DNA of 12,055 nt, taken from contig CACXCV010000203.1 in the NCBI GenBank assembly GCA_902766215.1, positions 1 to 12,055 on the forward strand. Reading direction: 5' to 3'. Positions 9 to 10,447 of this stretch are shown here, piece by piece. Position numbers and translations under genes: made by a program. The stretch is from Oscillospiraceae bacterium. GTDB lineage: Bacteria > Bacillota > Clostridia > Oscillospirales > Oscillospiraceae. A model generated the notes under the pieces. The model did not search any database. It had not been told where the DNA came from and was given only the letters and a program-made list of their open reading frames with translations. Within the stretch, counting starts at the first letter, position 1. Every line of letters starts with the position of its first letter.

Positions 9-659
9 ATGGCGGCTGCCGACGTCAATCTGGCCGCCAACAGCGCCGCTACCAGCGGTGCCGATGCAGAACTGAAATCCGAGCTGACTGATTCGTTTAC
101 CTTTGCGGCCGACAGCGCCGCACCCAGCGAGGGCGACGCATCCGGCGATCACGTTAACCTCTCATCCGCCCCGCTGAAGGCCGCGCCATCCGACGCGCTG
201 GACGAGGCGTCCGCTGAGGAATCTGCCGAGGCTGCCGAACCGCCGGCCAGCGAGCCGGCCGACACCGTGTCCCCGCCTTCGCCGGCAGCGGACAGCGCCA
301 ACACCCGCGGCGATACGGGGCATGGCTCCTACGTCAGCGGCGGCGATCTGACCCCGGCCGACGGCCAGGAAAACGCCATCGACTCCTCGTCGCTGATCAT
401 TACCAGCGCCGAACAGGCCGAGCTGCTCTTTGCCGCGGGCGACGGGTCCTTTGTCTGGACCATTCACGGTTATACGCCGGAGACGCTGCCGGAAGAAATG
501 CAGCAGCTGCTCACGTTTATCCGTGTGGGCACCTATGACCTGTATATCGCCACAATGGACGAAGCCGAGCTTGAGTCCTGGTTCTACGACTTCTATGATC
601 TGCTGGGCGGCGAGTTGACCTATGGCGACGCCAGCTCCATTGTTCTAAGCACAAAATAA
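9..659 (+). CDS. Hypothetical acidic low-complexity protein (D/E/A/S/P-rich N-terminal half, aromatic-rich C-terminal ~70 aa). The frame is open back to nt 1, so it may be 5'-truncated by the window.
   Basis: 216-aa ORF with GC-rich third codon positions, consistent with the other genes. The antisense ORFs across it (162..467 minus, 430..618 plus) are Arg/Gly-rich junk typical of wrong frames. No stop codon between nt 1 and the ATG at 9. No family recognised by eye. Confidence 0.5.
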   Translation: MAAADVNLAANSAATSGADAELKSELTDSFTFAADSAAPSEGDASGDHVNLSSAPLKAAPSDALDEASAEESAEAAEPPASEPADTVSPPSPAADSANTRGDTGHGSYVSGGDLTPADGQENAIDSSSLIITSAEQAELLFAAGDGSFVWTIHGYTPETLPEEMQQLLTFIRVGTYDLYIATMDEAELESWFYDFYDLLGGELTYGDASSIVLSTK

Positions 660-848: not shown

Positions 849-2723
849 ATGACAAACAGCAATCCCCCGCGAAAGCGCGCGCTGCCGCGCTGGATGATCC
901 CTGCGCTGTGCGCCGTGCTGCTGCTGGCAGCGGTGGTTGCCGCTGTGTTCTGGCGCTATCTTGGCAGTCTGCGCGGCCCCGGCGGGCAGACCGGACGGCT
1001 GAGCCTGAACGACTATGACAAAATTCTGCCCGGCGTGCGCATCTGCGGCATCGAGGTGTCCGGCCTGACCCAGGACGAGGCCGCCGCAAAGGTGGAAACC
1101 GCGCTGCAGGCAGACGCCGCAGCCCAGCAGTTTACGCTGCAGCTGCCGGATCAGGAGCTGACGCTCACCGGCTATCTCCAGCGCAGCGTTCCCACGCTGG
1201 CCGGCGTGGTGAAAGAGGCCTATGCCCACGGGCGCGACGGCATGTCCTCGCTGGAGGACGCCATGGTCCAGGCCGAGGCCTCTCCCCTGGAGTTGGAACC
1301 CGCCGTGACAGAGACCATTGACAGCAGCGCCATTGACGCGGCGCTGGCCGCCTTTACCAAAAAGCTGGACAGCCGCGCCACCGACGCCGTGATCACCCAG
1401 CAGGAGGACAGCATTGAGCTGCGCAAGGGCAAGGATGGCCGTGCGCTGGACGAGGAGTCGCTGAGCCGTCAGATTGTCGCAGCAGTCAAGAGCGGCAAGT
1501 CCTCGCTGAAGGCTGTATACACCCTCACCCGCAGCGGCGAACGCCAGCTGAGGGCCCTGTACGAAACCTTCTGCACTGAGGCAGTGGACGCCCACTGGGA
1601 CAGCGAAACCCACAGCATTGCACCCGAGCAGGAGGGCCGCCGTTTCGACCTGGCGGCCGCCCTGAAGCAGCTGGAAGCTCCCGACGGGGCGCAGCTGGTG
1701 ATCCCGGTGGTGCATCAGGCGCCAAAGATCACCGAGGCCATGCTGAAGGAGCGGCTGTTTGCCGACCGGTTGGGCAGTTATGACAGCCCGCACACGCCCA
1801 TTGCCGCCCGCACAACCAACCTGACCCTGGCCTGCCAGGCCATTGACGGCACGGTGCTCAACCCTGGCGAGGTGTTCTCCTTCAACGACACCGTGGGCGA
1901 GCGCACCGCCGCCAAGGGCTATCAGGACGCTGCGATCTATCTTGATGGCCAGACCACAGATTCGCTGGGCGGCGGCGTGTGTCAGGTGGCCTCCACCATC
2001 TACTGCTGCGCCCTGATGGCCAACCTTGAGATCGTCGCACGCACCGAGCACATGTACTTTGTGGACTATGTGCCCCCCGGGCAGGACGCCACGGTCTATT
2101 GGGGGGCGCTGGACTTTCAGTTCCGCAACAACACGGATTATCCCCTGCGGATCGACGCCAGCGTCTCCGGCGGCTATGTACACATCAATCTCCAGGGCAC
2201 CAATGCCGACGGCAGCTATGCCAAAATCACCTATGAGCAGCTGTCGCAGACCCCCTGGGAGGACGTGGTGAAGGTGGACGAAACCAAGCCTGCGGGTTTT
2301 TCCCAGGTGACCACCACGCCCTATACAGGCCGCGTCATCCAGACCTATCGCAGCGTGTATGACAAGGACGGAGCGCTGCTCTCCACCCGGGCCGAGGCCA
2401 AAAGCACCTACCACAAACGCGACCGTGTGACCACCATCGGCAAGCAACCCGACCCGGAACCCACGCCCGGCCCGGAGCCGGATCCCGATCCGACCCCCGT
2501 CGATCCACCGGTCACCGATCCGTTTATCCCCATTGACCCGGAGCCGCCCGAGCCGGAGGAGCCGCTTATCCCCGGCGATGGCGAAAGCGCTCCCGGCAGC
2601 GATGAAAACGGCGAAAGCGCTCCCGGCAGCGATGAAAACGGCGAAAGCGTTCCCGGCAGCGGAACCGCACCCGCCGGGCAGACGGCGCGCTGGCCCTGGG
2701 CAGCGGATCTTGACGCAAATTAA
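849..2723 (+). CDS. VanW-family cell-wall protein. N-terminal signal-anchor TM helix, then a peptidoglycan-binding-like region, a VanW domain, a G5-like domain, and a C-terminal Pro-rich/acidic low-complexity tail.
   Basis: 624-aa ORF with an RBS 6-12 nt upstream. N-terminus MIPALCAVLLLAAVVAAVFW is a TM segment. The central region GGGVCQVASTIYCCALMANLEIVARTEHMYFVDYVPPGQDATVYWGALDFQFRNNTDYPLRIDASVSGGYVHINLQG is characteristic of VanW domains. The following ~80 aa (YEQLSQTPWEDVVKVDETKPAGFSQ...RDRVTTIG) resemble a G5 domain. The antisense 661-aa ORF 810..2795 is rejected as spurious. Confidence 0.85.
   Translation: MTNSNPPRKRALPRWMIPALCAVLLLAAVVAAVFWRYLGSLRGPGGQTGRLSLNDYDKILPGVRICGIEVSGLTQDEAAAKVETALQADAAAQQFTLQLPDQELTLTGYLQRSVPTLAGVVKEAYAHGRDGMSSLEDAMVQAEASPLELEPAVTETIDSSAIDAALAAFTKKLDSRATDAVITQQEDSIELRKGKDGRALDEESLSRQIVAAVKSGKSSLKAVYTLTRSGERQLRALYETFCTEAVDAHWDSETHSIAPEQEGRRFDLAAALKQLEAPDGAQLVIPVVHQAPKITEAMLKERLFADRLGSYDSPHTPIAARTTNLTLACQAIDGTVLNPGEVFSFNDTVGERTAAKGYQDAAIYLDGQTTDSLGGGVCQVASTIYCCALMANLEIVARTEHMYFVDYVPPGQDATVYWGALDFQFRNNTDYPLRIDASVSGGYVHINLQGTNADGSYAKITYEQLSQTPWEDVVKVDETKPAGFSQVTTTPYTGRVIQTYRSVYDKDGALLSTRAEAKSTYHKRDRVTTIGKQPDPEPTPGPEPDPDPTPVDPPVTDPFIPIDPEPPEPEEPLIPGDGESAPGSDENGESAPGSDENGESVPGSGTAPAGQTARWPWAADLDAN
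2580..2662. repeat. Direct tandem repeat of about 2.8 x 30 bp (ggcgaaagcgctcccggcagcgatgaaaac). It encodes the in-frame peptide repeats GESAPGSDEN within the VanW-protein tail.
   Basis: Copies 2580-2609 and 2610-2639 are identical. The third copy, 2640-2662, is partial and carries one substitution (c->t). The unit length is a multiple of 3, which preserves the reading frame. Confidence 0.85.
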
Positions 2724-2726
2724 TGC

Positions 2727-2755
2727 TTGACAAGCGGCCCGTAAGCTGCTAAAAT
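2727..2755 (+). promoter_or_regulatory. Near-consensus sigma70 promoter of the infC-rpmI-rplT operon: -35 TTGACA (2727-2732), 17-nt spacer, -10 TAAAAT (2750-2755).
   Basis: Hexamers and spacing read directly from the sequence. Located 22 nt after the VanW stop and ~160 nt upstream of the infC start. Confidence 0.7.
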
Positions 2756-2917
2756 AGTCAAGAACAAGGAAGAGGAGCGGCGGCCCCGCCCTCACCTCAA
2801 GCCACGATGCGAAGAGGTTGATATGCGCCAGCCCGGCTTTGGCCGGTTTGTATGCTTGTCAGTGCGGGTGCCGTTATGGCATCCGCACTTTGTACTTTGT
2901 ATTTGGAGGTGCTTACC
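2756..2917 (+). promoter_or_regulatory. Structured ~160-nt 5' leader of infC. It contains an attenuator-like intrinsic terminator at 2862-2904: an 11-bp stem gtgcgggtgcc/ggcatccgcac with a 5-nt loop, followed by tttgtactttgtattt. A second GC hairpin lies at 2833-2846. Candidate L20-responsive leader (Rfam L20_leader-type autoregulation).
   Basis: Stem-loops and the T-rich tract read from the sequence. The terminator-like hairpin ends 1 nt before the GGAGGT RBS at 2905-2910. Established knowledge: in Firmicutes, infC-rpmI-rplT is autoregulated by L20 binding to the leader, with transcription attenuation. Assigning that mechanism here is inference. Confidence 0.45.
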
Positions 2918-3445
2918 ATCAGTAAGCTGGACCATCAGCTCAACGAGGAGATTCGCGACAAAGAGATTCGCGTCATTGGCCACGACGGTGCTCAGCTGGG
3001 CATCATGCCCCCCGCCGACGCGCTGCGCCTTGCCGAGGAACACGAGATGGATCTGGTAAAGATCTCTCCCAACGCCACTCCGCCCGTGTGCAAAATCATG
3101 GACTATGGCAAGTTCCGCTTCGAACAGACAAAAAAAGAAAAAGAAGCCCGTAAGAACCAGCATGTGGTTGAGATCAAAGAGGTTCGCATGTCTCCGGGCA
3201 TCGACGTCAACGACTTCAACGTCAAGCTGAAAAACGCACAGAAGTTCCTCAAGGATGGCAACCGCGTGAAGGTCACCGTCCGCTTCCGCGGACGCGAAAT
3301 GGCGCACACCAACATTGGCGAACAGCTGCTGCAGAAGTTCGGCGCCGAATGCGCTGAGGTCGCCGCAGTGGAGAAGAATCCCAAGCTCGACGGCCGCCAC
3401 ATGTCGATGTTCCTCTCACCCAAAGCCACCCCCAAAACAAAGTAA
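2918..3445 (+). CDS. infC: Translation initiation factor IF-3. Likely non-canonical ATC start at 2918, 7 nt after GGAGGT. The ORF-track ATG at 2852 lies inside the leader/attenuator and has no RBS.
   Basis: Translation ISKLDHQLNEEIRDKEIRVIGHDGAQLGIM...VCKIMDYGKFRFEQ...RFRGREMAHTNIGEQLL matches IF-3 along its whole length. IF-3 genes classically use AUU/AUA/AUC starts for autoregulation. An excellent Shine-Dalgarno at 2905-2910 is positioned for codon 2918 and for no ATG or GTG. The stop at 3443-3445 is unambiguous. Confidence 0.85.
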   Translation: MSKLDHQLNEEIRDKEIRVIGHDGAQLGIMPPADALRLAEEHEMDLVKISPNATPPVCKIMDYGKFRFEQTKKEKEARKNQHVVEIKEVRMSPGIDVNDFNVKLKNAQKFLKDGNRVKVTVRFRGREMAHTNIGEQLLQKFGAECAEVAAVEKNPKLDGRHMSMFLSPKATPKTK

Positions 3446-3490
3446 CCTGCATGCCGGCGCTCCGGCAGCTAATACGGAAGGAGTACTATC

Positions 3491-3688
3491 ATGCCTAAGC
3501 TTAAGACGCACAGCGGTGCAAAGAAGAGATTTAACCTCACCAAAAACGGCAAGGTCAAGCGTGCCCACGCTTTCAAGAGTCATATCCTCACCAAGAAGGA
3601 CACCAAGCGCAAGCGCGGCCTGCGTTCCGGCGCATACGCTGATGTCACCAACGTCGCGGCCATCCGCGAGATGATTCCGTACAAATAA
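3491..3688 (+). CDS. rpmI: 50S ribosomal protein L35
   Basis: 65 aa starting [36 protein letters not shown], typical of L35. RBS GGAAGGAG at 3476-3483. Confidence 0.95.
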
Positions 3689-3706
3689 TAAGGGAGGATA
3701 TGAACC

Positions 3707-4063
3707 ATGGCTAGAGTCAAAGGCGCAATGATGACGCGCAAGAGAAGAAACAAGGTCCTGAAGCTCGCCAAGGGCTATTGGGGCAGCAAGTCCAAGCATT
3801 TTAAGATGGCCAAGCAGGCCGTCATGAAGTCTGGCGTTTATGCCTATGCCGGCCGCAAGCAGAAGAAGCGCAACGACCGCAGACTGTGGATTGCCCGTCT
3901 GTCCGCCGCTGTCGCCCCCTTCGGCATGAACTACTCCACCTTTATGAACGGCGTGAAGAAGGCCGGCCTCACCATGAACCGCAAGATGCTCTCTGAGATG
4001 GCCATTGCCGATCAGGCTGCATTTGCCGCCGTGGTCGAGGCTGCCAAGAAGGCCCTCGCCTGA
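3707..4063 (+). CDS. rplT: 50S ribosomal protein L20
   Basis: 118 aa starting MARVKGAMMTRKRRNKVLKLAKGYWGSKSKHFKMAKQAV...RRLWIARLSAAV, typical of L20. RBS AGGGAGGA at 3691-3698. Conserved infC-rpmI-rplT order. Confidence 0.95.
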   Translation: MARVKGAMMTRKRRNKVLKLAKGYWGSKSKHFKMAKQAVMKSGVYAYAGRKQKKRNDRRLWIARLSAAVAPFGMNYSTFMNGVKKAGLTMNRKMLSEMAIADQAAFAAVVEAAKKALA

Positions 4064-4148: not shown

Positions 4149-5951
4149 CTAGGCCAGCAGTGCCGCCAGCCGGCACAGCACCACGCCGATGGCCGTGGGC
4201 AGCAGCACAGCCGCCGCCGTCCAGCGCCAGCTGTGCGTCTCCCGCCGGATGGTCAGACAGGTGGTGGAGCACGGCCAGTGGAACAGGAAAAACAGCATGG
4301 TACACAGCGCCGTGGCACGGGTCCAGCCCGCCGCCGGAAGCAGTGCCGCCAGCTCGGCCGTTTCTGCCCCGGCCAGGGTACCGGACGAGGTCAGCAGCAT
4401 CACGACCACGGGCATGACCAGCTCGTTAGCCGGAAAGCCCAGCAAAAACCCGGTCAGAATTGCTCCGTTCATCCCCAGATATCGCCCGATCGGCTCCAGC
4501 GCCGCTGCCAGACGCGCCAGCAGCGGCGTCCCGCCGGGGGAGAGATTGGCCAGCAGCCAGAGCACCAGCCCCGCCGGAGCCGCAACCACTGCCGCCCGCG
4601 ACAGCACGTGCCCGGTGCGGTCCAGCAGGCTGCGCAGCAGAATCTGCCCTACCCGCGGCCGGCGGAAGGGCGGCAGCTCCAAGGCATAGGCCGAGTGTTC
4701 GCCCCGCAGCAGCGTGCGGCTCAGGCCAAAGGACGCAGCCAGCGTAGCGCCCACGCCCAGCGCCACCAGCAGCGTCAGAATACCTGCCGCCAGCAGCGAG
4801 CTGCCCGCCCCCTGCCCGGCAAAGAACAGCACAATCAGCGAAATCAGGGCGGGAAAGCGCCCGTTGCACGGCACCATGCTGTTGGTGAGAATTGCCAACA
4901 GCCGTTCGCGGGGCGAATCGATGATCCGGCAGCCTACCACGCCCGCCGCGTTGCAGCCAAAGCCCATGGCCATAGTCAGCGCCTGCTTGCCGCAGGCGCC
5001 GCAGCAGGCAAAGGCACTGTCCATCAAAAACGCGGCCCGGGGCAGATAGCCCAGGTCCTCCAGCAGCGTGAAGAGCGGGAAAAAGATGGCCATGGGCGGC
5101 AGCATCACCGCCACCACCCGCGCCGCCGTGGCATACACACCGTCCAGCAGCGTCCCTCTGAGCCACCAGGGCAGCCCCAGCGCCGCCGCACCCCGGTGCA
5201 GCCAGCCGCCCAGCCAGTCAAAGCCCCGCTGCAGCAGCGCCGAGGGCAGATTGGCGCCCCAGATGGTCAGCCAGAATATGCCCAGCAGCAGCACCAGCAG
5301 CAGCGGCACGCCCAGCGGTCCGGTCAGGGCGCGGTCGAGGGTCAGCTCCCGACGGCTGCGCGGCTGGCCGCTTCCGCTGGTACAGGCGGCGCTGATACCC
5401 TCGGCCAGGCGCACCACCTCGCGCGGCTGGCCGGGCACGGCCAGCGGGTGCGGCCGCTCAAAGCCGTCCAGCACCGCCCGCAGCCGCGCCAACAGGTGGT
5501 CAACACCCTCTCCCCTACCGGCGGACAGCCCGCACACCGGCACGCCCAGCCGCCGCTCCAGCTGCAGCAGATCCACGGAAATATTCCGGCGGCCCGCTTC
5601 ATCCAGCAGATTGACCGCAACCACCACCTGCTCCGCCCGGGCCAGAATCTGCAGCGCCAGCACCAGTGATCGCTGCAGACAGGTGGCGTCGCAGACCACA
5701 ATGACGGCCTCTGCCTCTCCGCCGTAGAGGAACGAATCGGCCACAGCCTCCTCCGGCGAGCCGGGGCTGAGGGAATAGGTCCCCGGCAGGTCCACCAGCA
5801 GCAGTTCGCCGCACTGCCCCTGCGCCAGCTCCACCGTCTTGCCCGGCCAATTGCCTGTGTGCTGCCGCAGGCCGGTCAGCGCGTTGAAGAGCGTGCTCTT
5901 CCCCACGTTGGGATTTCCGGCCAGGGCCACCACCCTGCTTTTCTGTTCCAT
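4149..5951 (-). CDS. feoB: Ferrous iron transporter FeoB (N-terminal G-domain plus polytopic membrane domain). Start reassigned to the internal ATG at 5951, versus the ORF-track start at 6065.
   Basis: From MEQKSRVVALAGNPNVGKSTLFNALTG (G1 motif) onward the protein is FeoB-like. It has a hydrophobic C-terminal two-thirds with Gate-motif-like stretches. A strong RBS GGGGAGG sits 7 nt upstream of ATG 5951 (minus strand). The 38 codons upstream in the track ORF have no RBS and no FeoB similarity. Confidence 0.9.
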   Translation of the reverse strand: MEQKSRVVALAGNPNVGKSTLFNALTGLRQHTGNWPGKTVELAQGQCGELLLVDLPGTYSLSPGSPEEAVADSFLYGGEAEAVIVVCDATCLQRSLVLALQILARAEQVVVAVNLLDEAGRRNISVDLLQLERRLGVPVCGLSAGRGEGVDHLLARLRAVLDGFERPHPLAVPGQPREVVRLAEGISAACTSGSGQPRSRRELTLDRALTGPLGVPLLLVLLLGIFWLTIWGANLPSALLQRGFDWLGGWLHRGAAALGLPWWLRGTLLDGVYATAARVVAVMLPPMAIFFPLFTLLEDLGYLPRAAFLMDSAFACCGACGKQALTMAMGFGCNAAGVVGCRIIDSPRERLLAILTNSMVPCNGRFPALISLIVLFFAGQGAGSSLLAAGILTLLVALGVGATLAASFGLSRTLLRGEHSAYALELPPFRRPRVGQILLRSLLDRTGHVLSRAAVVAAPAGLVLWLLANLSPGGTPLLARLAAALEPIGRYLGMNGAILTGFLLGFPANELVMPVVVMLLTSSGTLAGAETAELAALLPAAGWTRATALCTMLFFLFHWPCSTTCLTIRRETHSWRWTAAAVLLPTAIGVVLCRLAALLA

Positions 5952-6007
5952 CGCTCCGCCTCCCCATACATGCTGCCACAGCCTATGCACAGGGAACGCC
6001 ATACGTG

Positions 6008-6046
6008 AAAAAGCCGCTGCCTGGGCAGCGGCTTCTCCTGTTTTTT
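6008..6046 (-). terminator. Intrinsic terminator of the nfeD-flotillin-orf113-ATPase operon. The stem is gccgctgcc/ggcagcggc, extendable to 11 bp. On the minus strand it is immediately followed by UUUUU. On the plus strand there is also a distal T6, so it is partly bidirectional.
   Basis: Plus strand 6008-6012 is aaaaa, giving a U-tract on the minus strand directly after the hairpin 6013-6032. It lies 62-103 nt downstream of the minus-strand stop at 6111. Confidence 0.7.
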
Positions 6047-6110
6047 CTGCGGGATACGCCCTCATCCGGCGGGACCGGCAGGCTTTGGCGCGCCGGCCGC
6101 AGTCTGCCGC

Positions 6111-6869
6111 TTACTCGGCATGCTGCTCGTCCAGCAGGTAGGCCAGCATACGCTCCGGCGCTTCGAGAAAGCGGCGGGTGATCTGATAGTGCTGGGTCTG
6201 CTGCCAGGCAACCGGCTGGATTCCCTCGTCCGTCAGCTCATAGAGCAGCGCACCGGGTAGCGCCATGAGGATCGGCGAATGGGTGGAGAGCAGAATCTGC
6301 GCCCCCAGCCCCGCCAAGCGATGCAGCGCCGCCAGCAGGGTCAGCTGCCGCATGGGCGAAAGCGCCGCCTCCGGCTCGTCCAGCAGATAAAGGCCGTCTG
6401 GCCCAAAGCGGTTGAGCACCAGGGACAGGAAGCTCTCCCCATGGGACTGCGCATGCAGCGACTGCCCGCCATAACGCTGGAGAAAGCGGTCGCCGCCGGG
6501 CAGCTGCGCCAGCTGATCCACATGGGTTGCCACGTTGTAAAAGCTTTCAGCCCGGAGGAAAAACCCGTCCTTCGGCCGCCGGATGCCGCGGCAGAGCGTC
6601 AGGCTCTGCCCCAGCGGCGAGTGCGTCTGCGCCGTGGCAAACTGAAAGTTGGTCGATCCGCCCTCGGGATTCAATCCCGCGGCAACCGCCACGGCCTCCA
6701 GCAGGGTCGATTTCCCCACGCCGTTTTCCCCCACCAGGATGGTCACCGGAGCCAGCGGCAGCAGCTCCATCGTCCGCATGTGCCGCACCACCGGCAGGCT
6801 GCTGACATAGCTGTCCTCCGGCAGCGCGCGGCTGAGCCGCACGCCCGTGAGAAACTGCCGGCTGAGCAT
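6111..6869 (-). CDS. Minimal stand-alone ABC-type / AAA_21-like ATPase (252 aa). Has Walker A, signature-like, Walker B/D-loop and H-loop motifs. No fused effector or DNA-binding domain.
   Basis: Walker A VGENGVGKST. ABC-signature-like HAQSHGESFLSLV. Walker B/D-loop GLYLLDEPEAALSP. H-loop LLSTHSP. RBS GGAGGGGG 8 nt upstream of ATG 6869. Starts 3 nt after the stop of the upstream 113-aa gene. Confidence 0.85.
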   Translation of the reverse strand: MLSRQFLTGVRLSRALPEDSYVSSLPVVRHMRTMELLPLAPVTILVGENGVGKSTLLEAVAVAAGLNPEGGSTNFQFATAQTHSPLGQSLTLCRGIRRPKDGFFLRAESFYNVATHVDQLAQLPGGDRFLQRYGGQSLHAQSHGESFLSLVLNRFGPDGLYLLDEPEAALSPMRQLTLLAALHRLAGLGAQILLSTHSPILMALPGALLYELTDEGIQPVAWQQTQHYQITRRFLEAPERMLAYLLDEQHAE

Positions 6870-6872
6870 GGC

Positions 6873-7214
6873 TCAGTCCCCCTCCAGCTGCCGCACCACC
6901 TCGCGGATGGTGTCAAGAAAGGCCTCCTCGCCCACCGTGTTCACCTTGAACCACACGGCCTGGCTGCCGCCGGAGGTGATGGCCGACAGGAACAGCCGCC
7001 CGTTCTCGCCGGCCAGGGTCAGGCTCATGCTGACCCGGTTGCCGCCAAACATGCTGTAGCGCTCATAAACGCGCACCGCCACGCGTGCATTGTCCAGCGT
7101 GCAGTCGCTGCCGTCCTCATAGCTGGCGGAGAGACTGCCGTCGAGGATTGCCCGATGCAGCTGGTCCAATACGGTGTCAAATGAGCCGGTCAGATGGGTT
7201 TCAAGCTTCGCCAT
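6873..7214 (-). CDS. Small soluble hypothetical protein (113 aa). No TM segment and no recognisable motif. Translationally coupled to flotillin upstream and to the ATPase downstream.
   Basis: ATG 7214 is preceded by GGAGG 6 nt upstream (minus strand) and overlaps the last 14 nt of the flotillin gene. The TGA stop at 6873-6875 is 3 nt before the ATPase ATG. Codon usage is consistent with its neighbours. The predicted protein is beta-rich and acidic. Confidence 0.7.
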   Translation of the reverse strand: MAKLETHLTGSFDTVLDQLHRAILDGSLSASYEDGSDCTLDNARVAVRVYERYSMFGGNRVSMSLTLAGENGRLFLSAITSGGSQAVWFKVNTVGEEAFLDTIREVVRQLEGD

Positions 7215-8613
7215 GGGGCGCCTCCTCAGGTGCGGGCTGGACGGGCTGCGGAGCCGGGGTCACGGGCTTGCCCATAAAGCCGGGCAGCTCCATCCCCGCC
7301 ATGCGGAACATTTCGTTCATCGGCGGCACGGCGCTCATATACGACTTGATAAAATCGGAGGTGGTGGAGCCGCCGTCTTTGCCGTTCATGGAATCCCAGA
7401 CAGTAATCTTGTCGATGGACAGGTTCTTGATGGCCTCCATCTGGGTCTTGAGGAGGTTCTCCAGCTTGTCAGCAATCATCAGCTGCACGGCAGCCTGCGT
7501 ATCACCGCCGGCAGCCTCGATGATCCGGCGGAAGCCCTCGGCCTGGCGGGTCAGCAGCTCCTCGGCGCCCTTGGCCTGGGCGGCCAGGCGGGCATAGATG
7601 GCGTCGGCCTCGCCCTGGGCCTGGCGGCGGATGCGCTCGGCCTCTGCCTCGGCAGACAGCTGGGCCTGCTCCTTTTCAATCTCGGCGCGGACGATCACAT
7701 CGGCCCGCAGGCTGGCCTGTTCGCGCACAGCACGGGCCCTTTCCGCGTTTTCCTCGGCGGCGTAGGCTTCTTCCAGCGCCTTGGCCTGGGCGACCTTCTC
7801 GGCCGCGGTGGCACGGCGCAGCGCCTCGGCCTCGCGCTCGCGGCGCACGGCCTCCGAATCGGCAATCTGCACCTTGGCCTCGTTTTCGCCCTGGATGGCC
7901 ACGGCATTGGCCTCAGCCACCGAAACACGCTGGTCGCGCTGGGCCTCGGACTCGCCCACGGTACCGGCACGGTTCTGCTCGGCCACATTGCGCTTGGCGT
8001 CGTTGATGGCCTTGGCTGCCGCTTCCTTTCCCAGGGCGTCGATATAGCCGGATTCGTCGGTGATGTCGGTAACGTTGACGTTGATCAGCCGCAGGCCGAT
8101 CTTTTTCAGCTCGGTTTCCACGTTGGAGGACACCGCTGCCAGAAACTTGTCGCGGTCGGTGTTGATCTCCTCGATGTCCATGGTGGCGATGACCAGACGC
8201 AGCTGGCCAAAAATGATGTCCTTTGCCAGCTCCTGCACCTGATCCAGGCCCAGACCCAGCAGGCGCTCGGCCGCATTCTGCATCACTGCCGTCTCGGTGG
8301 AGATGCCCACGGTAAAGCGCGAGGGCACGTCAATGCGGATGTTCTGCCGGGACAGGGCGCTGCGCAGGTCCACACTGATGGAGATGGGCGTCAGGTCGAG
8401 ATAGGCGCAGGACTGGATCACCGGCCAGACAAAGGCCGCGCCGCCGTGGAGGCAGCGGGCCGAACGGGCGCTGCCGTTTTCGGTGTTGCCCACCTTACCA
8501 TAGATCACCATGACCTTGTCAGAGGGGCACTTGCGATAGCGGGACAGAATGGCCAGCGTGGTGCCGAAAAACAGCAGCACAATGACCGCGATGAGAATGT
8601 AGATGGCTGGCAT
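7201..8613 (-). CDS. Flotillin / SPFH (band-7) family protein, FloT (YuaG)-like. N-terminal membrane anchor, SPFH domain, long Ala/Glu-rich coiled-coil region, Pro-rich C-terminal tail.
   Basis: 470 aa. N-terminus MPAIYILIAVIVLLFFGTTLAIL is hydrophobic. The following SPFH-like region is VMVIYGKVGN...FVWPVIQS...RFTVGISTE. An extended EA-repeat region (AEQNRAGTVGESEAQRDQRVSVAEANAVAIQGENEAKVQIADSEAVRREREAEALRR...) is typical of flotillins. RBS AAAGGAG 7 nt upstream of ATG 8613. Preceded by an nfeD-like gene, as in B. subtilis yuaF-floT. Confidence 0.9.
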   Translation of the reverse strand: MPAIYILIAVIVLLFFGTTLAILSRYRKCPSDKVMVIYGKVGNTENGSARSARCLHGGAAFVWPVIQSCAYLDLTPISISVDLRSALSRQNIRIDVPSRFTVGISTETAVMQNAAERLLGLGLDQVQELAKDIIFGQLRLVIATMDIEEINTDRDKFLAAVSSNVETELKKIGLRLINVNVTDITDESGYIDALGKEAAAKAINDAKRNVAEQNRAGTVGESEAQRDQRVSVAEANAVAIQGENEAKVQIADSEAVRREREAEALRRATAAEKVAQAKALEEAYAAEENAERARAVREQASLRADVIVRAEIEKEQAQLSAEAEAERIRRQAQGEADAIYARLAAQAKGAEELLTRQAEGFRRIIEAAGGDTQAAVQLMIADKLENLLKTQMEAIKNLSIDKITVWDSMNGKDGGSTTSDFIKSYMSAVPPMNEMFRMAGMELPGFMGKPVTPAPQPVQPAPEEAPHGEA

Positions 8614-8647: not shown

Positions 8648-9346
8648 TCAATCATCGCGCTCGACAACCAGTAGGCCGCCGCTGAGGTCCGTCACCCGCA
8701 CCTGCATCCCCGTGGGCAGGGCTTCGCCCTCGGTGACGGCGTCAAGCTCCATCAGCTGTTCGCCCAGGACCAGCTGCACCTTTCCGGCGCCGTGCCGCCG
8801 GGCCGGGATGGGAATGTACACCGTGCCGGACTCGCCAAGGGCGCTGCGCTGTGAAACGGTGCCGTTTTCCTGCAGGCCAGCCAGCAGCTGGATCAGCTTG
8901 GCAATGAGAACCAGGCTCAGCAGGCCGGAAGCCAGCGCAATGATCAGCGCCAGCACCGGCCGCAGACCGCACTCCAGCGCCGCGATGCCGGCCCAGCTGC
9001 CCACAGCCAGAAAGCCGATGATCCCCCGGACGGAAAACAGCCGCAGGCCGTGATCTGCCCCGGCGTCCGCGCCGCCGTCCGCATCCGGAGGCAGGCTGCC
9101 GTCCGGATCGGCCACCAGCTCTGTGTCGGGCACACCGTCCAGATCGACGTCTGAATCCAAATCCAGACCGGCGTCCGCGTCGCAGTCGCCGTCGCACAGG
9201 CCGCTGGTGTCCGAATCGGTCTGGTCGCCCCCGCCGCCGCTGAACAGCAGCAGGATCGTCTGAATCAGCAGGATCAGCGCACTGGGCGCGCCGATGAGAA
9301 ACAGCGCCTGCTCCAGCGCCGGAATCCCGGCCCACCATGCTTCCAT
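8648..9346 (-). CDS. NfeD-family membrane protein (short form): N-terminal TM helix, unusual Asp-rich ~60-aa loop, two further TM helices, C-terminal OB-fold beta-barrel. Start reassigned to ATG 9346, versus the ORF-track start at 9418.
   Basis: A strong RBS GAGGGGG sits 7 nt upstream of ATG 9346. The track start at 9418 coincides with the -35 hexamer of the operon promoter, so it cannot be coding. The C-terminus GESGTVYIPIPARRHGAGKVQLVLGEQLMELDAVTEGEALPTGMQVRVTDLSGGLLVVERDD matches the NfeD OB domain. Located upstream of a flotillin, the conserved partnership. Confidence 0.8.
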   Translation of the reverse strand: MEAWWAGIPALEQALFLIGAPSALILLIQTILLLFSGGGGDQTDSDTSGLCDGDCDADAGLDLDSDVDLDGVPDTELVADPDGSLPPDADGGADAGADHGLRLFSVRGIIGFLAVGSWAGIAALECGLRPVLALIIALASGLLSLVLIAKLIQLLAGLQENGTVSQRSALGESGTVYIPIPARRHGAGKVQLVLGEQLMELDAVTEGEALPTGMQVRVTDLSGGLLVVERDD

Positions 9347-9389
9347 TGGGTAACCCCCTCTTTTCAGAGTGTAAATTTCTCTTACCCCA

Positions 9390-9418
9390 AGTATACAATC
9401 TGCGCTGGGGTTTGTCAA
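9390..9418 (-). promoter_or_regulatory. Consensus sigma70 promoter of the nfeD-flotillin operon on the minus strand: -35 TTGACA (plus coordinates 9418..9413), 17-nt spacer, -10 TATACT (9395..9390).
   Basis: Read directly from the reverse complement of 9390-9418. Predicted TSS near 9383, ~37 nt upstream of the nfeD ATG at 9346. Confidence 0.6.
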
Positions 9419-9440: not shown

Positions 9441-9464
9441 CATAGAATGATTACAATTTCTATG
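9441..9464. promoter_or_regulatory. Perfect 7-10-7 inverted repeat CATAGAA-tgattacaat-TTCTATG between the two divergent promoters. Candidate operator or activator box.
   Basis: Arms 9441-9447 and 9458-9464 are exact reverse complements. The repeat is immediately upstream of the regulator -35 (9466-9471). It is centred about -48 relative to the predicted regulator TSS and about -70 relative to the nfeD TSS. Confidence 0.45.
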
Positions 9465-9465
9465 G

Positions 9466-9494
9466 TTGCACCCTCAGCGCATTTATGCTAAAAT
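9466..9494 (+). promoter_or_regulatory. Candidate promoter of the PlcR-like regulator gene: -35 TTGCAC (9466-9471), 17-nt spacer, extended -10 TGcTAAAAT (9486-9494).
   Basis: The extended -10 is well formed and the -35 is weak. 39 nt upstream of the GTG start at 9533. Confidence 0.5.
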
Positions 9495-9532
9495 ATCGTG
9501 TGTAAATGACAATTACAAGGTTGTGATCCATT

Positions 9533-10399
9533 GTGACTCTGGGTGAGAAAATCAAAAAGGCACGGCTGGACCGCCACATGACCCAGCGTGACGTGGTGGG
9601 CAGCTATATCACCCGCAACATGCTCTCAAAAATTGAAAACAACAGCGCCACGCCCTCGATGAAAACGCTGGAGTTTCTGGCCGCGCAGCTGAATCTGCCA
9701 ATCAGCTATTTCGTCTCGGAAAACGTTGTGGCGGTGGTTCCACGCTCACTGCAGGCGGCGCGCGAGGCATTTTCTGCCGGACAATACGACGCCGCCCTGG
9801 CCCTTCTGGAGGAAGCCGACGGCCTGGAGGATGAACAGGATGAGACGCAGCTGCTTTGCGCGCTGTGTCACCTGCATCTGGCCGCAGCAGCCAGCCGCCG
9901 CGACGATGCGCAGGCCGCCCTGGCCCACGCCCGCGCCGCCATGGAGGCCAACCGCCAAACCATCTACGGCAGCGAGGCGACAGCCGCCAAGGCGGCCTTG
10001 CTGGCCGCACGGTATGACGAGGCGTCGTTTGACCGCGCAATGGAAGCATATCACACGGCGCGGTCCTCGATGGGGCTGGACCGGCTGTACCACCTGACCA
10101 TGGCGCAGCACTATCTGGCCGCCGGTCAGACGCAGCCGGCTTCCGCCGAGCTGGCGCAGCTGGATGGCCCCTCGGGTCAGGACCCCGACTGTCTGCGCAT
10201 GCAGGGCGAGCTGTCCATGCAGCAGAGCGACTATCCGCGGGCCGCGCAGCAGCTGCGCCGGGCCGAGCAGCTGGCCGTTACCGCCGGCAGCAGCGAGGAC
10301 GCCATGGCGCCGCTGTATGCCATGCTGGAGCAGTGCTACCGCGAGATGGAGGACTATAAAGAGGCATACAACTACGCGGCAAAGCAGATTCAGCGATAA
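9533..10399 (+). CDS. XRE-family HTH transcriptional regulator with a C-terminal TPR-like helical-repeat domain. This is PlcR/Rgg (RNPP-family)-like architecture. GTG start.
   Basis: 288 aa. The N-terminus LGEKIKKARLDRHMTQRDVVGSYITRNMLSKIENNSATPSMKTLEFLAAQLNLPISYF closely follows the PlcR/Rgg HTH pattern (LGxxIKKxRxxxxxTQxxL...SxIExGxxxPSMxxLxxxAxxLxxPIxxF). The remainder is Ala/Leu-rich with amphipathic repeats and a Y/A-rich C-terminus. Monocistronic, bounded by its promoter and a downstream terminator. Confidence 0.85.
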   Translation: MTLGEKIKKARLDRHMTQRDVVGSYITRNMLSKIENNSATPSMKTLEFLAAQLNLPISYFVSENVVAVVPRSLQAAREAFSAGQYDAALALLEEADGLEDEQDETQLLCALCHLHLAAAASRRDDAQAALAHARAAMEANRQTIYGSEATAAKAALLAARYDEASFDRAMEAYHTARSSMGLDRLYHLTMAQHYLAAGQTQPASAELAQLDGPSGQDPDCLRMQGELSMQQSDYPRAAQQLRRAEQLAVTAGSSEDAMAPLYAMLEQCYREMEDYKEAYNYAAKQIQR

Positions 10400-10400
10400 T

Positions 10401-10447
10401 CCCGCCAAAAAACAACACCGCGCCGCCCCCCGGGGCGGCGCGGTGTT
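10401..10447. terminator. Bidirectional intrinsic terminator: a 16-bp perfect GC stem (aacaccgcgccgcccc/ggggcggcgcggtgtt), flanked by A6 upstream and T-rich sequence downstream.
   Basis: Palindrome 10414-10447 read from the sequence. On the minus strand it is followed by UUUUUU, which is canonical for the Gx-transporter gene whose stop codon is at 10447-10449. On the plus strand it follows the regulator stop (10397-10399) with a weaker U-tract. Confidence 0.75.

Follow-up and report, generated by a model that had tools for sequence, protein, structure and literature searches.

We propose that the regulator encoded at positions 9533 to 10399 of the analyzed DNA, a stretch of 12,055 nucleotides from an Oscillospiraceae bacterium (hereafter, the window), belongs to a widespread, uncharacterized XRE-TPR family with a clean predicted operator, the palindrome GTAAAT-N3-ATTTAC; the protein class and its orphan status come as no surprise. 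It is probable that the regulator is a one-component transcription factor, in which an N-terminal XRE-type HTH is joined to a C-terminal TPR sensor or interaction domain. It would repress both its own gene and the divergent nfeD-flotillin operon through the palindrome, and a signal received by the TPR domain would release this repression; we hold this to be the likely mode of action.

The regulator gene and its product

The open reading frame at 9533-10399 on the plus strand, which had been picked out by a sequence-only reading of the window, is real; it starts with GTG and specifies 288 amino acids. In some database entries, the start is placed at Met16 (273 aa), which would remove helix 1 of the HTH. 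The GTG start is supported by the near-invariance of M1, L3, and G4 in the relatives of the regulator (n = 59). The gene is flanked by a gap of 187 bp upstream, which holds two promoters, and by a gap of 48 bp downstream, which is filled by a hairpin. It is monocistronic, as the earlier reading had stated.

The protein is composed of an XRE HTH (aa 1-62, nt 9533-9718) and a TPR array (aa ~70-288, nt ~9740-10396). The Pfam families HTH_19 and HTH_3 matched aa 4-61 with E values of 3e-9 to 5e-9. The TPR-type Pfam matches were weak (ANAPC3, 9e-6; TPR_19, 9e-4), both below the gathering threshold, and only HTH-level matches were obtained with NCBIfam and PADLOC. An AF2 model calculated from the 59-sequence alignment (pLDDT 94.6, pTM 0.74) shows five helices in the HTH and, after them, about 12 that form the TPR domain. 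The Pfam HTH matches, the model, and the comparison of the family profile with PlcR (below) bear out the HTH plus TPR-like architecture and the PlcR-like size that had been claimed.

In the alignment of the 59 relatives, 12 of the 16 invariant residues fall in the HTH. In the recognition helix, T27, R28, M30, L31, S32, and E35 are invariant, and this invariant helix fits the invariant operator described below. The best-conserved stretch outside the HTH is the last repeat together with the capping helix (LYAxLExCYRExEDYKxAYxYAxKQ).

A palindrome just past the -10 box of the regulator promoter

The regulator promoter is located at 9466-9494 on the plus strand, as had been proposed. It consists of a -35 box (TTGCAC, 9466-9471), a 17-nt spacer, and an extended -10 box (TGcTAAAAT, 9486-9494), in which the TG is at 9486-9487 and the hexamer TAAAAT is at 9489-9494. 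The promoter is below the threshold of a generic scan, and the -10 arrangement including the TG recurs in the relatives.

The palindrome GTAAAT-N3-ATTTAC was first seen by inspection of the upstream regions, just past the regulator -10 box. In the window, this predicted operator (O1) occupies 9502-9516 (GTAAATGACAATTAC), 7 nt past the regulator -10 box and 16 nt ahead of the GTG. A probable ribosome-binding site, AAGG, can be read from the sequence at 9517-9520 (plus strand), 12 nt before the GTG, and in other members of the family, too, the palindrome is followed by G-rich positions.

The exact pattern GTAANTNNNANTTAC was found in 48 of 84 loci, nearly always as a single copy just upstream of the regulator. 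When one mismatch was allowed, 74 matches were found within 400 bp upstream, as against 15 in the other 926 kb. With the strict form GTAAAT-N3-ATTTAC (at most two mismatches in 12 positions), a site was located in the zone from -120 to -15 at 91 of 124 loci. The density of 94 matches in 13.1 kb of these zones against 69 in 1.2 Mb elsewhere is an approximately 125-fold enrichment, which is inflated for an AT-rich motif because the background is mostly GC-rich coding DNA. The composition of the background leaves the fixed offset from the -10 box unexplained. A -10-like hexamer was detected just upstream of the palindrome in 86 of 90 sites, with the extended -10 TG in 78, and the gap between the end of the -10 box and the palindrome is 3-4 nt in 62 of the 90. 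The arrangement that marks an XRE autorepressor, a palindrome that overlaps the -10/+1 region of the regulator's own promoter and is conserved along with the regulator gene, was therefore found in this family. The 15-mer was also considered as an RNA hairpin, and this reading was rejected; positions 5 and 11 are non-complementary, and the stem would contain four A-T-rich pairs.

The hairpin downstream of the regulator gene has a GC-rich stem of 15 bp and lies at 10414-10447. A T-run is present on the minus strand only (tail, GTTTTTTGG), and none follows the hairpin on the plus strand. This hairpin is the terminator of the convergent Hpre_diP_synt_I gene. For the regulator, it is at best a tail-less hairpin, which probably also halts that transcript. 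Thus, of the bidirectional terminator placed at 10401-10447 by the earlier reading, the hairpin is real and the T-run serves one strand.

The divergent operon and a second predicted operator

All genes of the divergent operon are on the minus strand. The first gene, nfeD, encodes an NfeD-like membrane protein (8648-9346; likely ATG at 9346, 232 aa). It is followed by a flotillin gene of the SPFH/Band_7 type (7201-8613, 470 aa; Band_7 E 6e-27), a gene for a DUF6054 protein (6873-7214, 113 aa), and, as the last gene, an ABC-type ATPase gene (AAA_21/AAA_15; 6111-6869, 252 aa). A terminator-like hairpin with a T-tail at 6013-6029 (minus strand) ends the operon before feoB. The match to the NfeD C-terminal domain is weak: in the window, its E value of 4e-4 does not reach the gathering threshold, and in the related locus L012, its score of 28.9 bits falls just short of the cut-off (29.1). 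The gene order is that of NfeD-flotillin operons, in which the SPFH/Band_7 gene is preceded by a gene for an NfeD membrane protein. In loci L160-L163, where the regulator is 98% identical, nfeD-flotillin-DUF6054 is present, the ATPase gene is missing, and a hydrolase gene is found instead. Thus, the ATPase is strain-variable. With PADLOC, only generic ABC-ATPase P-loop and signature-motif matches were obtained for it.

The divergent promoter lies at 9390-9418 on the minus strand, with TTGACA (9418-9413), a 17-nt spacer, and TATACT (9395-9390); it agrees with the consensus at 11 of 12 positions. A second predicted operator (O2), GTAAATTTCTCTTAC, occupies 9371-9385, 4 nt past this -10 box. It has one mismatch to GTAANTNNNANTTAC and is degenerate in one half-site (TCTTAC). 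O1 and O2 are the only two matches to the palindrome in the 12-kb window, and both lie inside the 187-bp intergenic region; two matches in the window alone are not significant, as 23 of 200 shuffles reach two. An independent repeat search of the window also paired O1 with O2.

In six lineages (the window, L002, L003, L085, L012, and L013), a site-like palindrome is found exactly 4 nt past the divergent -10 box. The regulators of these loci are 41-100% identical, and their first divergent gene is nfeD, DUF6054, or DUF975. A second site with at most two mismatches was detected in 8 of 81 loci, whereas about one would be expected. Most loci of the family have the own-promoter site only. Thus, co-regulation of the divergent gene would apply to a subset of the family. 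The suggestion that the regulator controls the divergent operon gains genuine support in silico from O2 and from the recurrence of nfeD-flotillin beside distant family members. In the family, nfeD-flotillin is a minority partner.

The palindrome spans about -3 to +12 of both the regulator and the divergent promoters. Operators at +1 usually mean repression, although not always, and a palindrome at this position of a promoter with good -10 and -35 boxes is the classic geometry of repression. The overlap of the operator with the transcription start therefore favors repression by the protein over activation of the PlcR type.

The operator named by the sequence-only reading was a different element, an inverted repeat at 9441-9464 (CATAGAA-N10-TTCTATG; arms, 9441-9447 and 9458-9464) between the two -35 boxes. 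This repeat exists, but it is not conserved across the family. It is identical in the strains with the 98%-identical regulator. In L002 (77% identity), its arms read CTGCGGAA and TTCTGCAG, which are still complementary, and the centre AATGATT(A/G)CAATTT is retained; the repeat is absent in L003, L085, and L012. Because its recurrence is confined to same-species strains and L002, we rejected it as an operator for the whole family. Another factor may bind there, or the repeat, whose minus strand contains GTAAT, may serve as an auxiliary half-operator. A further inverted repeat of 10 nt with 90% complementarity (TGCGCTGGGG at 9401-9410 and CCTCAGCGCA at 9472-9481) lies in the -35/-10 spacers of both divergent promoters.

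Several other features of the window were recorded. The FeoB open reading frame (4149-6065, minus strand) has probably been drawn too long: translation likely begins near 5951 (MEQKSRVV…), and the hairpin at 6013-6029 falls within the surplus part. The window shows no feoA. A VanW/PG_binding_4 protein encoded at 849-2723 (plus strand) has a Pro/Glu-rich tail with tandem GESAPGSDEN repeats (~2600-2720). An open reading frame at 9-659 (plus strand; 216 aa), rich in Ala, Asp, and Ser, matched no Pfam family. Rfam at the gathering threshold gave no match anywhere in the window, not even to an L20 leader at infC-rpmI-rplT (2730-4063).

Distribution of the family and its gene neighbours

In a scan of species-representative genomes, relatives of the regulator were found in at least 559 species-level genomes. 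Among the 80 loci listed, the labels are nearly all Oscillospiraceae, Ruminococcaceae, Faecousia, or generic Clostridia/Firmicutes. From the protein database, 347 relatives of about 290 aa were obtained, and a metagenome scan added few further close relatives. The literature yielded no study characterizing this family, no report on DUF6054, and no functional work on DUF975.

The neighbouring genes were clustered over 85 loci and then over 126 loci. The commonest divergent neighbour is a gene for a DUF975 membrane protein, confirmed by Pfam (39 of 126 loci). In the close clade, DUF6054 is the conserved divergent partner (L002, 77% identity; L003, 60%; L085, 62%).

nfeD-flotillin is a minority partner, yet it recurs beside the regulator in three or four distant lineages. 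In L012 (regulator 44% identical), nfeD-flotillin-DUF975 lies directly under the divergent promoter, and in L120 (38% identity), nfeD is divergent from the regulator. The regulator homologue of L120 (1012-1551) is shortened to 179 aa, which may reflect a pseudogene or an assembly error. In L032 (34% identity), an ORF of 63 aa between the regulator and DUF975 is a flotillin C-terminal remnant (6526-6717, …KVSVWDSRNGQNG…), apparently left by the decay of an nfeD-flotillin insertion. In every case, nfeD-flotillin stands as an insertion between the divergent promoter of the regulator and the usual partner gene.

Between the window (7201-8613) and L012 (3454-4872), the flotillins are 79% identical, as compared with 49% for NfeD and 44% for the regulator. 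This excess reflects either unusually strong constraint on flotillin or horizontal movement of the cassette.

Relationship to peptide-sensing RNPP regulators

PlcR of the Bacillus cereus group (PlcR/PapR) is the closest solved relative of the regulator, being the best PDB match by sequence, profile, and Foldseek. Like the regulator, it is composed of an XRE HTH and about five TPR-like repeats and has nearly the same length; its DNA site is palindromic, as is the one predicted for the regulator. However, the sequence match to PlcR (E 1e-5) covers aa 3-73 only. Within the HTH, 22 of 58 residues are identical (38%, counted from the alignment), and the recognition helix is TRNMLSKIE in the regulator and HQSEVSRIE in PlcR. 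Thus, the earlier wording that the HTH follows the PlcR/Rgg signature "almost residue for residue" was overstated. The PlcR box, TATGNAN4TNCATA, also differs from the regulator palindrome, and no papR-like gene lies downstream at the regulator locus.

The resemblance raises the alternative that the regulator is an RRNPP quorum-sensing receptor, for which a secreted propeptide would be encoded elsewhere; the imported peptide would occupy the TPR groove and switch DNA binding. The architecture and length shared with PlcR speak for this alternative, as do the top structure matches and the full-length family profile. PlcR, Rgg2, ComR, and PrgX are the top Foldseek PDB matches of the full-length model (E 1e-6 to 1e-3), but their TM-scores are just 0.20-0.28, and generic TPR proteins (APC6/Cut9 and designed CTPR) are close behind. 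Against PDB sequences, the full-length family profile matched PlcR colinearly over residues 5-271 (E 2.4e-11) and NprR and AimR more weakly; the ComR HTH is also among the top matches. When the C-terminal domain alone was used as the profile, generic TPRs (TTC21B, CTPR, LapB, and MamA) were matched instead, and AimR (E 0.003) was the sole RNPP-type match. With hhalign, the C-terminal profile gave a probability of 1.4% against the PlcR TPR region, which was rebuilt from the profile alignment. The Rgg/RNPP C-terminal models of Pfam and NCBIfam matched neither the regulator nor any of the 59 members. The three C-terminal repeats superposed on the TPR modules of LpoP, HOP, and CHIP at ~2 Å over ~100 residues. 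The match to PlcR is thus driven by the HTH, and no specific C-terminal homology to PlcR is detectable. The C-terminal fold is truly a TPR fold, and it resembles canonical TPRs and not RNPP sensors. Thus, the placement in the RNPP family made by the sequence-only reading stands for the architecture, and the C-terminal domain models as TPR without specific homology to an RNPP sensor.

The absence of an adjacent signalling-peptide gene, which the same reading had noted, was borne out. In the window, no plausible small secreted-peptide ORF lies beside the regulator. When ORFs of 12-75 aa within 400 bp on either side were clustered over 126 loci, no conserved peptide gene was found. The largest cluster (41 loci) proved to be the reading frame antisense to the conserved N-terminal codons; the remaining clusters are inside neighbouring genes or confined to one clade. 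Nothing shows that the regulator is controlled by a signalling peptide.

The regulator therefore has an N-terminal XRE/Cro-C1 HTH and a C-terminal TPR-like superhelical repeat domain, as DNA-binding RNPP proteins do, and lacks the specific sensor-domain homology and the adjacent small secreted propeptide gene. Because these last two features were looked for and not found, we do not file the regulator as an RNPP member. The RRNPP family is documented to include unlinked peptides as well as orphan receptors (PMC6414698). On balance, we regard an RRNPP receptor with a distant propeptide gene as unlikely. An HTH plus TPR architecture by itself does not make a quorum-sensing receptor, and this family marks that boundary.

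Proposed regulation and its alternatives

In the mechanism that we favor, the regulator, presumably as a dimer, would bind the 15-bp palindrome. On O1, it would cover its own transcription start and thereby repress its own gene; on O2, it would repress the nfeD-flotillin-DUF6054(-ATPase) operon. A ligand or partner in the TPR domain would relieve the repression, and the nature of this signal is speculative. We infer the binding of the palindrome by the regulator, the direction in which it acts, and both the presence and the nature of the ligand.

Repression of this kind has parallels among HTH proteins with helical repeats. PrgX, Rgg3, and TprA, like the regulator in our model, are repressors that are relieved by a ligand, and PrgX and Rgg structures are among the Foldseek matches. 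Each of the three has a linked peptide gene and a degenerate, RNPP-specific repeat domain; the repeats of the regulator are nearer to consensus TPRs. RstA of Clostridioides difficile is an orphan RRNPP-type HTH-TPR protein that represses its own gene via an inverted repeat located over the promoter; its ligand or cofactor is reported to be unknown (PMC6414698). It targets toxin, motility, and sporulation genes via AT-rich imperfect repeats and has additional Spo0F-like and quorum-sensing-like TPR regions (PMC6414698). RstA is clostridial, combines an HTH with TPRs, and has no adjacent peptide gene, as is the case for the regulator; it surfaced in no search of the regulator and is likened to it by its description (PMC6414698). 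The gene in the window is an orphan, as had been claimed, but with RstA already known, this is not novel as such. RstA is a direct precedent for the proposed autorepression, and the regulator would work most like the repressor-type HTH-TPR regulators RstA, PrgX, Rgg3, and TprA.

The TPR domain may instead be a protein-protein module that senses the regulated membrane proteins, for example by sequestration at the membrane, so that feedback would proceed without a diffusible signal. The neighbours are consistently membrane or membrane-associated proteins (DUF975, NfeD, flotillin, and DUF6054), the three C-terminal repeats superpose on the partner- and peptide-binding TPRs of LpoP, HOP, and CHIP, and the last repeat with the capping helix is the best-conserved stretch outside the HTH. 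However, this alternative is purely inferential, and 70 of 126 loci have none of those families as the divergent neighbour; we consider it quite improbable. A specific form of it is an Oscillospiraceae-specific feedback on the state of the membrane, in which the TPR domain docks on a cytoplasmic segment of DUF975, NfeD, flotillin, or DUF6054, and the assembly or disturbance of flotillin microdomains titrates the repressor off its operator. This form is very doubtful; if true, the protein would be a sensor and regulator that is devoted to bacterial membrane-raft genes and works without a ligand.

Finally, the protein might be a PlcR-like activator, or the palindrome, which could be recognized by another factor, might belong to a different regulator, and the gene would then have no part in controlling the nfeD-flotillin operon; we find this hardly credible. 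In its favor, PlcR, ComR, and the majority of Rgg proteins activate transcription, and nfeD-flotillin adjoins the regulator in a minority of loci. Against it, the palindrome lies at about -3 to +12 of both promoters and not upstream of -35, and it co-occurs with the regulator gene in 91 of 124 loci. Both promoters, moreover, already come close to the consensus or have an extended -10 box and would not need an activator.

Significance

For a regulator family that is very widespread in gut and rumen Oscillospiraceae, this analysis yields a precise predicted operator, GTAAAT-N3-ATTTAC, together with a small set of membrane proteins predicted to form the regulon (DUF975, DUF6054, and NfeD-flotillin). 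In Bacillus subtilis, which has the NfeD-flotillin operon content in common with the window, floT is controlled globally via Spo0A/AbrB (PMC4409396). In the literature that we searched, no report of a dedicated divergent local regulator of flotillin genes was found. If the proposed repression is confirmed, a dedicated local regulator would be known for a bacterial flotillin operon for the first time, and there would be a way to approach the function of two uncharacterized domains, DUF975 and DUF6054.
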